Source: a virus
Lineage: Duplodnaviria > Heunggongvirae > Uroviricota > Caudoviricetes
Direction: 5' to 3' (one strand)
IMG/VR virus record: IMGVR_UViG_2802429235_000002
Location: 1 to 12,123 of that record
Length of the DNA stretch: 12,123 bases
Shown here: positions 57-9,910 of the stretch, one piece after another
Position numbering within the stretch: the first letter of the stretch is position 1
Layout of the letters: each line of letters begins with the position of its first letter
Position numbers and translations under genes: made by a program
Notes under the pieces: generated by a model
What the model saw: the letters and a program-made list of their open reading frames with translations, nothing else
Databases searched by the model: none
What the model was told of the DNA's origin: nothing

Positions 57-230
57 TAAATGCCCTTACTGTCGCATTTTCATATCTGGCATTCTCAATT
101 CCCAAGGAACAAATGCAACCAACACTGGCATCGCTCCAGCTTGAATCACTCAACCCCAAATGGTCCCAGCAACAACAAAATTCTTTCAAGTGGCTGGCGG
201 TATTACTGGAAGAAAAATATGCTGGTGAAA

Positions 231-575
231 TTACCATTTCGGCGGAGTCTTCAGTGAACCAGTAATTCTTCCCGGCAGTTTTCCTTTGTAGGTTATCCAC
301 ACACCCTGCGCCTCTAAAATTATGGGGCGCTTTTCCGGTGACTGCTCATCCCCTTCACATAACCCTGCAGCAACATCCAGGAAGACCTGTCTGATGCTCC
401 TTCTGGCTGCTGCCTCATAAAACTCCAGCGCGGCACCTTCAACACGGTCCAGCGAGATGTCCAGGTCTAAAATTTCACCGTCAAAGCGTTTTTTGTCCCG
501 TAACGCTAAAGTTACCGTAACTTTATTCTCAAAATTGCGGATCCCTTTCACAATCAGTTCATAGTTTTGAGTCAT
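231..575 (-). CDS. Hypothetical protein (114 aa) immediately downstream of the holin, same strand
   Basis: ATG at 573-575 with a GGGGAGAG Shine-Dalgarno-like sequence upstream; starts 4 nt after the holin stop, so probably co-transcribed. No motif recognised; it is not an endolysin-like sequence. Confidence 0.5.
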   Translation of the reverse strand: MTQNYELIVKGIRNFENKVTVTLALRDKKRFDGEILDLDISLDRVEGAALEFYEAAARRSIRQVFLDVAAGLCEGDEQSPEKRPIILEAQGVWITYKGKLPGRITGSLKTPPKW

Positions 576-579
576 TGAA

Positions 580-795
580 TTACTCTCCCCGTGCAGCCTT
601 ACGCTTATCTTCTTTAATCTTGAAATAAAGATTTGTCAGATACGTCAACAGGCCAAACACCAGACTACCCAGCACACCTATTGCTGCCCACTGTGAGGGC
701 GTGACTCTATCGAGCAACTGTAAAAACCAGTAGCCAGCACTGCCTGCGGAGGTGCCATAGGCGACACCTGTTGTTAACTTATCCATGGATTTCAT
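580..795 (-). CDS. Phage class II holin/pinholin, phage 21 S family (71 aa)
   Basis: The translation [71 protein letters not shown] closely resembles the S21 holin as I recall it, including the dual-start Met1/Met4 arrangement and two transmembrane segments. GAGGTG ribosome-binding site upstream of the ATG at 793-795. The longer 102-aa ORF in the track is a 5' over-extension. Confidence 0.8.
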
Positions 796-3985: not shown

Positions 3986-4141
3986 TTACTCCTCAGGTTC
4001 GTAAGCTGTGAAGACAGCGACCTCCGTCTGCCCGGTTCGGATTCGTACCTCGCAGAGGTCTTTCCTCGTTACCAGTGCCGTCACAATGACGGTTAAACAG
4101 ATGACGATCAGGGCGATTAACATCGCCTTTTGCTGCTTCAT
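3986..4141 (-). CDS. hokD: Hok/Gef-family type I toxin (51 aa)
   Basis: MKQQKAMLIALIVICLTVIVTALVTRKDLCEVRIRTGQTEVAVFTAYEPEE matches the Hok family and, from memory, E. coli HokD/RelF. AAGGAG ribosome-binding site 9 nt upstream of ATG 4139-4141. An in-frame upstream ATG at 4198 gives a 19-aa N-terminal extension. Confidence 0.85.
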   Translation of the reverse strand: MKQQKAMLIALIVICLTVIVTALVTRKDLCEVRIRTGQTEVAVFTAYEPEE

Positions 4142-4352
4142 AGCCTGCTTCTCCTTGCCTTTCGGCACGTAAGAGGCTAACCTACATGTGCAAAGCATGA
4201 AATTGGCCTCAGATTAATGTTAAGCGTCTTGCCGGACGCGTAATGTTAACTGGGGCTTTTCTCTATCTGCCTTTGGTGTTCATGCCCGAGGCAGATAGCC
4301 TCAAGCACCCGCAGCAATTCTACTTAACTCCCGTCACCTCGCCAATATAAAA

Positions 4353-4442
4353 TCAATCAGAAAGGCGATCCATAAGAACAACAGCAAGACAATAAATTGC
4401 TATTACAGCAGCAATAGCCAGCGCACATTTGAGAACCAGCAC
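4353..4442 (-). CDS. Candidate small hydrophobic peptide (29 aa): MLVLKCALAIAAVIAIYCLAVVLMDRLSD
   Basis: Consensus AGGAGG Shine-Dalgarno 5 nt upstream of a GTG start at 4440-4442; single predicted transmembrane helix; sits between the hok gene and the 3' end of the NTPase gene. Under 60 aa, so absent from the ORF track. Confidence 0.4.
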   Translation of the reverse strand: MLVLKCALAIAAVIAIYCLAVVLMDRLSD

Positions 4443-4810
4443 GACAACCTCCTGTATTGGACGCACACCAGTCCTGATAAATATGAGGCTGTCTCGTCAG
4501 TGATTCAATACAACTATTGGGTATAGTTTATCTATTTTTTCTTTGGCAATGGAACACAACAGCCAAACATAACCAACACTTCTTCAGATGTATTAAGTCA
4601 GGCCCCAACCAGCATTTTGAGTAAGCAGTTCACTCAAATATGACTATCTGATTTGAGCGACGTGCGAACATTTACGATAGCTTCACTATGATTGATACAT
4701 TCTGCAATCTCTTTGTCTCAGAAAGTCGAAAGTAGCTTAAGCTATATTATCAAGAGGATAATCATCACATTGAAGGTCGATACGTTACCTTCAATGTGAC
4801 AATCTATTTA

Positions 4811-7069
4811 TTATTGAATTTGCAGGTTTGTACGTAAGGAACCTGTAGATTCCTCATATAACTTAGATATATAATTAGACATATCATGGTTACTTCGTAC
4901 TTTTTTATTGAATTTTTTCAGGTACTTATCAACCGTAGTGCTAAGTAGCCCTGAGTCGTCTGTAACGTGAGTTATCCCTAAATTAATCAAAACACCTAAT
5001 TTATTTTTTTCCACTAAGCTATCAAATGCGGATTTATCCCCGAGCTCATTCAGTGTTGATGCTATGAAGAAACGTGCATAATCAATATGTTCACCAATTT
5101 CCTCATATTGTTCAATTTGAACTGACAAGTCTTCCAAGGCAGATTTGAAAAAATCATATGCGTAATTGTTACTTAAACACTTTGTGAAAATACAAAGAAG
5201 AGCTACTGGTGAAAACTCCTTCAGCGGGATGTCGGTATTTCCCTTGAGAATATCAACATATAATTTACCTGCATCTATATATGATAAAAGGACTCCCCTC
5301 GTTATTTTTTTATACGGAGTTAGATATGAAGCCAAATAAAAAGAACCGTTATAAAATAACCTTAAAAATCTTGTTTTATCGTTACTAGGTTTAAGTTCAT
5401 TAATTTTATCAATAAGATATTCATTGTCTCTTAACAAACCAAAATAGAAGAAATAACTATTTGCCCAATAAATATCATAAATATTATCATTTATGTCTAT
5501 TAGGCCACGCTTCCTAAGTCCTTCAGCGTAAAAATACTCCATGAATGATCTGTGTAGAAATGAGAACGTATTACTTCTAACATTAACTGTTGTTACTTCA
5601 CTGCGATAAATTAGTCTTTTGAAAAGTTTGTCCTCATCAACATTCAAGTTTCTTTTGGCCAAATAATTTAAAAACATGTCCTGCACTTCTGAAATTGATA
5701 TGCAGTTTAGAGAGTTATCCATCATAAATATCGCAATTTCTACTAATATATTACTTATTACATCATATTCTGTTTGCGATAATAATCCCTTAGATGTATC
5801 CCATCGTCCCAATACTATCTCACTGTATTTTGAGTATAGTTCTGTCATTGTAGATGGTAATTCTTTAATCTCATCAGAGAGTATTCTTGCCAGAAGAATA
5901 GCGCTCACTGGAGTCCTGGGAATGAACTTAAATAGTGGTGTTTTTTCTATACCATTTTTAAGTTTATTTGTTATTTTAATGTCATTGCAGATTTTATCTA
6001 CAAAGTCGATTATTTGACCTGTGCTAAGTGGTATTATCGAGTATCTTGCAAACATCTGATCGATAACTTCATAGTCCTGAAGAGAATCCATAATTCTTGA
6101 AGCAACTAGTAATCGAATTTTATCATTCCTGGATACTTTCTCTACAATGTCCCTGAAGTTGTTTTGCCTTTCCTCAAGTGATTCCTTTACTTCATCCACC
6201 GAATCAACAATTAATAAAATATTCCCATCATGTTGTATTTTGTACTTACTTAACACACTTTGTATTATATTTTCAACATTAAGTTTTTTTTCTAGAACAT
6301 CCTTGTATTGACAAAATACTGGAAGGATGTAGTCTTTTTCGTAAGAATATTCTTCTTTTATTTTTCTAATTAACTGTTTCAGCAAAGTACTTTTCCCAGA
6401 GCCAACGGTTCCCTCTAAAAAAATAAATCTCTCGGCTCTCACAACACTATACAGTTTTAACGGCCTGTGTCTGCGTTTTTTATGATCTTCCTTGCTTACA
6501 TATCTATCAATAAGGTTATTTATGCCAACACTACCAAAAAAAGAGCTTTCAGGTGTATCACTTATGGTTTGCAATGTATCTGTTAAGTATTGTTCATAAT
6601 TAATGGATTCGAAATCCCAAAACTCTGGGTAATATTTACTGATTAAAGAACATATTTTTTCACCCTCTATAAATTTTATATTTGTAGATTTGAATTTCAA
6701 GTAAATTTTTTCTTGAGCATTATTTGAGATCGATGAATTAGTAATAACCCAAATTTCATTCAAATGTATGTTCTTAGAGCCAGAAGAAATAAAGCGTGGA
6801 TATAATTGACACTCTTCTATTTGTCGTTCAACCTCACTATTTGACTGAATTATCTTTCCAACTTTACAAATAACACCAATATATATTTCCTCGTCTAATG
6901 CCTCATCTCGTTTAATTATGACAAAATCAGCACCTTTTTCTGATGGTCCTTGCTTATATTCAACATGTGTAACAGTCGGCAAACGTGGTAGAAGCGCTCT
7001 TGGCACTGGATGGAAATCATCAACCTCACGTTGCAATGATTCTATTTTTCTTAAGTATTCTGGTTTCAT
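4811..7069 (-). CDS. NACHT/STAND-type P-loop NTPase, NLR-like (752 aa), with an unassigned N-terminal domain and helical C-terminal region
   Basis: Walker A GTVGSGKST (codons at 6386-6412); Walker B LLIVDSVDE (NACHT-style hhhhD-x-x-DE) followed by LLVASR, resembling the NACHT sensor-1 hhhTSR motif. About 205 aa precede the P-loop and about 270 aromatic-rich residues follow the NTPase core. AAGGT ribosome-binding site 7 nt upstream of ATG 7067-7069. The gene is conspicuously AT-rich compared with its neighbours. Confidence 0.8.
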   Translation of the reverse strand: MKPEYLRKIESLQREVDDFHPVPRALLPRLPTVTHVEYKQGPSEKGADFVIIKRDEALDEEIYIGVICKVGKIIQSNSEVERQIEECQLYPRFISSGSKNIHLNEIWVITNSSISNNAQEKIYLKFKSTNIKFIEGEKICSLISKYYPEFWDFESINYEQYLTDTLQTISDTPESSFFGSVGINNLIDRYVSKEDHKKRRHRPLKLYSVVRAERFIFLEGTVGSGKSTLLKQLIRKIKEEYSYEKDYILPVFCQYKDVLEKKLNVENIIQSVLSKYKIQHDGNILLIVDSVDEVKESLEERQNNFRDIVEKVSRNDKIRLLVASRIMDSLQDYEVIDQMFARYSIIPLSTGQIIDFVDKICNDIKITNKLKNGIEKTPLFKFIPRTPVSAILLARILSDEIKELPSTMTELYSKYSEIVLGRWDTSKGLLSQTEYDVISNILVEIAIFMMDNSLNCISISEVQDMFLNYLAKRNLNVDEDKLFKRLIYRSEVTTVNVRSNTFSFLHRSFMEYFYAEGLRKRGLIDINDNIYDIYWANSYFFYFGLLRDNEYLIDKINELKPSNDKTRFLRLFYNGSFYLASYLTPYKKITRGVLLSYIDAGKLYVDILKGNTDIPLKEFSPVALLCIFTKCLSNNYAYDFFKSALEDLSVQIEQYEEIGEHIDYARFFIASTLNELGDKSAFDSLVEKNKLGVLINLGITHVTDDSGLLSTTVDKYLKKFNKKVRSNHDMSNYISKLYEESTGSLRTNLQIQ

Positions 7070-7099
7070 TTGTTTACCTTAAACAGTATCCAAAAAAAT

Positions 7100-7135
7100 C
7101 ATTTTATATAACAATCATATTTCATACAATGTCAA
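7100..7135 (-). promoter_or_regulatory. Candidate sigma70 promoter for the NTPase gene
   Basis: On the minus strand a consensus TTGACA (plus 7130-7135) is followed 16-19 nt later by a TA-rich stretch (TGTTATATAA), about 35-60 nt upstream of the ATG. The exact -10 hexamer is ambiguous. Confidence 0.35.
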
Positions 7136-7170
7136 CTATTAGACTCTTTTTCAACATTATAAACCTATTA

Positions 7171-7500
7171 TCAAAGACTAAGGCGACGGATTTCTCCGTC
7201 AGGTAATGACCAGATAAGGTCAGGATCAACCACAACCGGTTTCTTCACCTTTGCCCTTGATAGTTTTTTGCGGGCGTTTTGCCAGTCTTTACGAACCTGT
7301 TCTGAGGGAAATAACCCGTAACCAGAGTTGTATACATCACCGCTCGCAACCAATTCTCTGGCAAGAAGGTTCATCAGATATCTTGTCGCACCTGTCTTAG
7401 CTTCCAGTTGTCGTAACGTCTCGCGCCCACTCTGGCGCACGAGTTCAACAACCTGCCCTTTAATTTTTTCCCGCCCTTCTTGTGTAAATACTTTTGCCAT
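7171..7500 (-). CDS. Hypothetical protein (109 aa)
   Basis: Start chosen at ATG 7498-7500 with a GGAGG Shine-Dalgarno 5 nt upstream (the track's 114-aa version begins 15 nt earlier). Normal GC content, co-oriented with the replication genes. Confidence 0.55.
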   Translation of the reverse strand: MAKVFTQEGREKIKGQVVELVRQSGRETLRQLEAKTGATRYLMNLLARELVASGDVYNSGYGLFPSEQVRKDWQNARKKLSRAKVKKPVVVDPDLIWSLPDGEIRRLSL

Positions 7501-9052: not shown

Positions 9053-9910
9053 TTACCCCCTGAAGCCTGGCGGGATCGCACTATCCGGTAACGAGACGGT
9101 GTTAACCTGTCGGAGTAACGTCTCAGGTCGAACACCTTTTGGCGCGAACAAGCCCTGGTATTCATTGGCGATGCTGTGTCGAATCACCTGCTCAGGTGAA
9201 AAACCCTGCTGGCGGAATTTTTCCAGCTCCCGTATCGCCCCGTTAGCGCCCTGCTCCGTTCGAATCGGTTTACGCAATGCCTGGCGAAATTCAACCCACT
9301 CACGCCAAAGCGAGACAGAAATCCAGTTCGGCAAAGCAATATCCAGAGGGTCAAACTTTTTGACACCTCGATTCCCCCGGGGGGGATTTAGGGGGGGATC
9401 TTTTTTTAGATCTTTATCTGTATCTTTATTAGTTGCCTTTGTGTTGACATCATGTTCAAACACCACTTCAACATCTGTTTGAACACCTGTTAAATTTCTC
9501 TCTTGTTTTGTTTGAACATCTGCTTCCTTTCTGCTTCTTCTGGCCTGAACAGATGCTTTTCCTGCGGCTGATTTTTTGGTTAATTTTTCCCTGACTGATG
9601 CCAGATCTTCCTCAATCCGAAGATGCACTCATTCCTCGCCGTTATCGCAAAAAAACTCCTGCAAGGATGGTTCAACATCAGCCCATCGCTCGTTAGTCAG
9701 ACGGGCAATTTTTGCCAGCCTGTTTTTAGGTATTGGCTTTCCTGTTTGCCAGTAATTGAACATCAGCAACAAATACGCACCATGCTCCTCTGCTGACAAA
9801 TGCATGGTGTCAGCCAGGTAATCAGCTATGTACAGTTGCATGTATGGTAATGCGGCCATAATTGCCCCGTATGATGCTGCCCGGTTGCTTAGAATAAGCA
9901 CAAACAGCAT
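9053..9910 (-). pseudogene. ydaU: YdaU-like replication-region gene interrupted by a single in-frame TGA
   Basis: Track ORFs 9629..9910 (93 aa) and 9053..9628 (191 aa, GTG at 9626-9628) are in the same frame, separated only by TGA at 9629-9631. The combined length of 285 codons equals my recollection of intact E. coli YdaU. Confidence 0.5.

Follow-up and report, generated by a model that had tools for sequence, protein, structure and literature searches.

Few bacterial NLR-related defence proteins have been studied as thoroughly as bNACHT25. The protein of Escherichia coli ECOR11 carries the accession WP_001702659.1 (Conte et al. 2025, PMC12169576), which is also given in the Fig. S9 legend and Tables S1 and S2 of Kibby et al. 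(bioRxiv 10.1101/2022.07.19.500537). Table S1 of the latter work places it in clade 6 and describes it as 'REase+nSTAND4+NCH1', with REase at residues 2..178, nSTAND4 at 185..558 and NCH1 at 575..747. The N-terminal domain was annotated in 2022/2023 and termed an 'Mrr-like restriction endonuclease' (Kibby et al., 10.1101/2022.07.19.500537). bNACHT25 protects against phages T2 and T4 and against Emesvirus ssRNA phages. It is activated by MS2 through either the coat protein or the L protein; host DnaJ is required, and the coat protein is not bound directly. DNA degradation and growth arrest both depend on D48. With the D48A substitution, bNACHT25/32 no longer defend against phage, and neither MS2 nor its coat protein sets off DNA degradation (Conte et al. 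2025, PMC12169576). Two substitutions, H506L and S508P, switch bNACHT25 on without a stimulus, and the hyperactive histidine mutant ceases to be toxic when D48A is introduced (Kibby et al., 10.1101/2022.07.19.500537); this mutant is named H506L in Conte et al. (PMC12169576). D48 is the only nuclease residue mutated in the published bNACHT25/32 work, in which we found no in vitro nuclease biochemistry; the D48-dependent degradation was observed in vivo.

The window gene and its relation to bNACHT25

The DNA analysed here (the window) is a stretch of 12,123 nucleotides from the viral record IMGVR_UViG_2802429235_000002. On its minus strand lies a complete gene whose 752-residue product is WP_105286067.1 (Escherichia sp. 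MOD1-EC5495) by exact-sequence look-up. The gene, its domains and the sites discussed below are as follows.

4811..7069, minus strand: complete gene for the 752-aa REase-NACHT-NCH1 protein, a bNACHT25 allele (from the ORF list and translation)
6536..7069, minus strand: N-terminal Mrr-like PD-(D/E)xK (restriction-endonuclease-fold) DNase effector domain, aa 1-178
7001..7003, minus strand: codon 23, CCA (Pro), in helix 21-29; CTA (Leu) in all close alleles
6926..6928, minus strand: codon of D48, the catalytic Asp, where strand 2 begins, in the motif E44-K-G-A-D48
6863..6865, minus strand: codon of K69, the Lys of '(D/E)xK', at the end of strand 3 (AF2 strand 60-69)
6812..6823, minus strand: Q83-I-E-E86, in the helix at aa 78-89 after strand 3; candidate relocated active-site residues
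6455..6565, minus strand: low-confidence linker from the nuclease core to NACHT, aa 169-205 (AF2 pLDDT <50)
5396..6517, minus strand: central NACHT (STAND NTPase) module, aa 185-558 (domain limits of Kibby et al.)
6386-6412, minus strand: Walker A, GTVGSGKST, aa 220-228
aa 285-293, minus strand: Walker B, LLIVDSVDE
4847..5344, minus strand: NCH1, Pfam PF22728, aa 576-741 (133 bits)
7070..7201, minus strand: region upstream of the gene, including its own promoter; a near-match to the cloned bNACHT25 native-promoter fragment
7184-7201, minus strand: terminator-like hairpin upstream of the promoter region

The window protein aligns with WP_001702659.1 without gaps and is identical at 742 of 752 positions (98.7%). 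It has the same REase-NACHT-NCH1 architecture and the same length, 752 aa, as the clade 6 proteins bNACHT25 and bNACHT32 (WP_057688292). D48, H506 and S508 are all present with the numbering of bNACHT25; the latter two, in the NACHT module, are the sites of the published hyperactivating mutations (Kibby et al.; Conte et al., PMC12169576). The kinship extends to the surroundings of the gene. bNACHT25 occupies the same prophage slot and has nearly the same upstream promoter region: the bases upstream of the window gene are the start of the cloned bNACHT25 native-promoter fragment, with few base differences. Ten substitutions separate the two alleles, and only L23P and V109I (P23 and I109 in the window) fall within residues 1-205. 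L23P is private to the window contig and affects a near-invariant residue.

All three parts of the protein were recovered with Pfam, as Mrr_cat (E 6.7e-4), NACHT at aa 214-331 (E 5e-9) and NCH1 (E 1.2e-38), and the REase fold of the first is backed by AF2 and Foldseek. A sequence-only reading of this DNA had singled out residues 1-205 (nt 6455-7069) as an unassigned and possibly novel effector domain in front of the P-loop. Their position was correctly read, since Walker A lies at aa 220-228. The domain is neither unassigned nor novel, because the near-identical bNACHT25 had already been annotated as REase and tested with D48A. It is the known, genetically tested REase/Mrr-like DNase effector of bNACHT25. 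We hold with high confidence that residues 1-178 constitute the Mrr-like PD-(D/E)xK DNase effector of a bNACHT25 allele, a single-gene, prophage-borne, NLR-related member of clade 6. As a discovery the locus carries little weight, being a near-identical allele of so well studied a protein. The window can be labelled confidently as a prophage of the Rac type with a bNACHT25 defence moron, and its residual novelty is confined to the composition of the active site, which is non-canonical, and to the L23P variant.

Fold of the N-terminal domain

Searched alone, residues 1-205 matched Pfam Mrr_cat (PF04471) over aa 35-143 with an E-value of 6.7e-4 and 20.2 bits, 0.8 bit short of the gathering cut-off of 21 bits for this family; the full-length scan gave 16 bits. 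Mrr_cat was also matched by three of four family members at E<=1, the best at 2.6e-4. That the domain might represent an effector fold of a new kind, with no relation to known nucleases, one of two options offered by the sequence-only reading, draws on several negative results. No Pfam family passed its gathering threshold on aa 1-205, and scans with NCBIfam and PADLOC pointed to no informative family for this domain and returned generic P-loop matches only. PADLOC 2.0 contains no model that catches the window bNACHT. No related PDB sequence was found with the single domain, with a four-sequence profile or with a 27-sequence profile; PDB sequence matches to designed armadillo repeats, RhoGAP5 and S100-A7 were discarded as spurious.

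Structure prediction points the other way. The AF2 model of residues 1-205 has a pLDDT of 84-94 over most of aa 1-150, the confidently folded core of the nuclease domain; it drops to about 70 in two stretches (aa 41-50 and 91-100) and lies below 50 at aa 169-205. Helices are predicted at residues 3-10, 15-19, 21-29, 78-89, 116-125 and 136-146, and strands at 33-38, 49-55, 60-69, 92-94, 99-101, 105-110 and 131-134. Together they trace the alpha-beta-beta-beta-alpha-beta core of restriction endonucleases, in which D48 directly precedes strand 2 (residues 49-55) and K69 ends strand 3. Foldseek searches of the PDB with this model returned MspJI (E 3.8e-5), AspBHI (3.3e-4) and FokI (9.5e-3), with further matches to SfsA and Card1; all of the matches listed share the restriction-endonuclease (PD-(D/E)xK) fold. 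Within the limits of a predicted model these matches rule out a new fold, a reading to which we attach next to no probability. The other option, a divergent nuclease, is borne out by the identity with bNACHT25, the published D48A phenotype, the near-threshold Mrr_cat match and the predicted fold. The HMM search of residues 1-205 and the AlphaFold and Foldseek analysis that had been proposed as checks both came down on the side of a nuclease: the former fell just under the Mrr_cat cut-off, and the latter gave the expected core with PD-(D/E)xK matches.

The nearest known domains include the Mrr-like catalytic domains of type IV restriction endonucleases (PF04471), among them E. coli Mrr, AF1548 (1Y88), MspJI, AspBHI and the LlaBIII nuclease domain. 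Unlike these enzymes the window protein has no domain for reading DNA modification, and the nuclease is placed instead under the control of a NACHT NTPase. Avs4 (SeAvs4, PDB 8DGF) likewise combines an Mrr-like nuclease at its N-terminus with a STAND NTPase and acts against phages. Its NTPase belongs to the Avs/AVAST STAND clade, whereas that of the window protein is a NACHT. The sensors differ as well: the TPR-like sensor of Avs4 binds the phage portal directly, whereas bNACHT25 has NCH1 and senses indirectly in a DnaJ-dependent manner.

A general mechanism for the window protein can be proposed from this comparison and from the published work. (i) The C-terminal NCH1/NACHT region would sense infection indirectly via host DnaJ, as described in the literature for bNACHT25. 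(ii) The NACHT NTPase would leave its ADP-bound OFF state and oligomerise, as suggested by STAND/NLR biology and by the hyperactive H506L and S508P alleles. (iii) The N-terminal nuclease domains would be brought together and activated, by analogy with FokI and Avs4. (iv) The nuclease domains would then degrade DNA indiscriminately, and phage production would stop. The last step is modelled on the DNA degradation and its D48 dependence reported for bNACHT25.

Family conservation and the active site

The effector belongs to a large family, which only a full HMMER search revealed; a word-indexed homologue search had returned four relatives. A profile of four sequences, run against clusters at 50% identity, matched 977 clusters at E<=1e-3; 197 of these reached E<=1e-30. 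Lengths are mostly about 760 aa, with the same architecture as in the window protein. A candidate for a standalone version of the domain, a 167-aa 'restriction endonuclease' of Vreelandella boliviensis (JAGWDL010000003.1) that is 53% identical to the window N-terminal domain, was rejected. Downstream of the 167-aa protein at that locus (4001-6283), a 152-aa NACHT fragment and a 402-aa NCH1 protein are encoded in the same direction. The 167-aa protein represents the beginning of a REase-NACHT-NCH1 gene that has been broken up, and the idea of the domain as an independent nuclease was therefore dropped.

Conservation was counted after the window domain had been aligned with 152 family representatives, which have diverged below 50% identity. 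E44, G46, D48 and K69 are invariant (152/152). Q83 is conserved in 151 representatives, E15 in 149, H20 in 146, P21 in 144 and E86 in 141, and C87, R92, G97 and W107 are also highly conserved; conservation is poor past about aa 162. The peptide quoted in the sequence-only reading, GADFVIIKRDEALDEEIYIGVICK, lies at residues 46-69 and contains D48, E61 and K69 as named there. Of these three proposed targets for alanine substitution, two hold up: D48 corresponds to the published nuclease-dead mutant, and K69 never varies. The third does not. Position 61 is T in 43 representatives, E in 26, V in 15 and I in 14; E61 is not conserved and is unlikely to be catalytic. A mutagenesis list would accordingly retain D48 and K69, drop E61 and add E44, E15, Q83 and E86.

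Manual alignment with E. coli Mrr relates these residues to the known motif. 'DGGID' of Mrr aligns with E44-K-G-A-D48, so that D48 takes the place of the second D; 'YVQAK' aligns with G-V-I67-C-K69 ('GVICK'); and 'ITTSGFTSQA' aligns with 'ITNSSISNNA', in agreement with hhalign. The hhalign comparison of the family profile with the single E. coli Mrr sequence covered this strand-4/helix element only, at a probability of 0.5. D48 supplies the conserved Asp expected where strand 2 begins. The (D/E/Q)-x-K motif of strand 3 (residues 67-69, codons at 6863-6871 on the minus strand) is half present: K69 is invariant, and the acid or Gln is missing. Position 67, the usual D/E site (Q in Mrr and MspJI), is I in 106 representatives, V in 43 and L in 3, and is never D, E or Q. 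Thus, where Mrr-like enzymes have the Q/E of 'QxK', the bNACHT25-type family has I, V or L.

A missing strand-3 residue is what would be seen if the module were a catalytically inactive REase-like domain of the NA-iREase1 type, serving as an adaptor or in DNA binding, and two relatives of the window protein do match NA-iREase1 (PF22722) weakly (E 0.0047). The window protein itself has no match to this family at E<=1. Inactivity also sits badly with the persistence of D48, K69 and E44 without exception, and of E15, Q83 and E86 almost without exception, in a family below 50% identity, and with the loss of DNA degradation, toxicity and defence on D48A substitution reported for bNACHT25/32. An inactive module is accordingly very improbable. 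The preferred reading remains an active nuclease with D48 and K69 as the predicted conserved core of its active site.

Because I67 is hydrophobic at the canonical acid/Gln position, the site would probably be completed by E44, E15 and Q83/E86. These residues lie on helix 1 (E15), in the E-x-G-A-D element (E44) and on the helix after strand 3 (Q83/E86). We tentatively suggest that bNACHT25-type effectors may use a non-canonical PD-(D/E)xK site in which E44, E15 and/or Q83/E86 complete metal binding. In enzymes of the Cfr10I/NgoMIV type, a relocated acid completes metal binding. The window site may resemble those of the PD-(D/E)xK variants Cfr10I, NgoMIV and Bse634I, which are sequence-specific type II enzymes, unlike the window effector. 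The strand-3 acid missing throughout the family, together with the natural L23P variant, offers small leads for bNACHT25 enzymology.

The L23P allele and its prophage

The window represents a lambdoid prophage of the Rac type from Escherichia. In 13 complete E. coli chromosomes a counterpart was found for about 84% of its length, at 98.5% identity in most, and the records of these chromosomes annotate the gene as 'NACHT domain-containing protein'. Its slot lies between a replication module (ydaU, ydaV, DUF1627 and a DUF977 pseudogene) and hokD/DUF1367. The gene is rare, being present in 18 of 5,426 complete E. coli genomes and always chromosomal. One of the 18, NZ_CP091756.1, carries WP_001702659.1 in the same slot. 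A blastn search for bNACHT32, which is 81% identical, turned up no E. coli genomes beyond the same 18. The gene sits in a sharp island of low GC content (window 4500-7100, 30-35% GC against about 40-53% in the flanks), and the truncated DUF977 pseudogene adjoins it. The combination of low-GC island, hairpin and pseudogene is typical of a defence moron that has been acquired horizontally and inserted into a prophage.

The common form of the allele is WP_033801850.1, which is annotated in CFSAN061771 and carried by about a dozen complete genomes at 99.9% nucleotide identity. It is identical to the window protein at 751 of 752 residues, the sole difference being L23P (CCA in the window, CTA in the common allele). 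On a rival reading the domain has the nuclease fold, and the window allele would nevertheless be a hypomorph or a dead copy in a decaying cryptic prophage, with L23P breaking helix 21-29. Several observations lend this reading some substance. L23P alone separates the protein from an allele that at least nine complete E. coli genomes share. Leucine occupies position 23 in 143 of the 152 representatives, and I or V in most of the others; the position lies inside a helix predicted by AF2. Moreover, the neighbouring ydaU homologue (9053-9910, minus strand) has a premature stop at codon 94 (W94*) that splits it into ORFs of 93 and 191 aa, compared with an intact ydaU of 285 aa in NZ_CP042896.1, and this suggests prophage decay. 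On the other side, the ORF of the NACHT gene is intact over 752 codons with two nucleotide differences from the common allele, AF2 still returns the fold with high confidence (although AF2 is insensitive to point mutations), and a sequencing error could account for a single-base difference in a draft contig of 12 kb. We regard an impaired copy as unlikely, though it is the most serious of the alternatives considered. The window allele may have impaired function, or its differences may stem from sequencing errors; L23P could be a natural loss-of-function variant of what we take to be the bNACHT25 nuclease effector.

Two further features of the prophage were recorded. Adjacent tRNA genes, tRNA-Gly(tcc) and tRNA-Thr(tgt), occur at 1572-1725 on the minus strand, within a stretch (about 811-2028) that the prophage of NZ_CP042896.1, 98.8% identical elsewhere, lacks. 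A hok/sok type I toxin-antitoxin locus (4136-4310 and 3986-4198, both on the minus strand) lies close downstream of the NACHT gene. Rfam sok (RF01794) matches with 115.8 bits, and the corresponding region of related genomes is annotated as the hokD gene.
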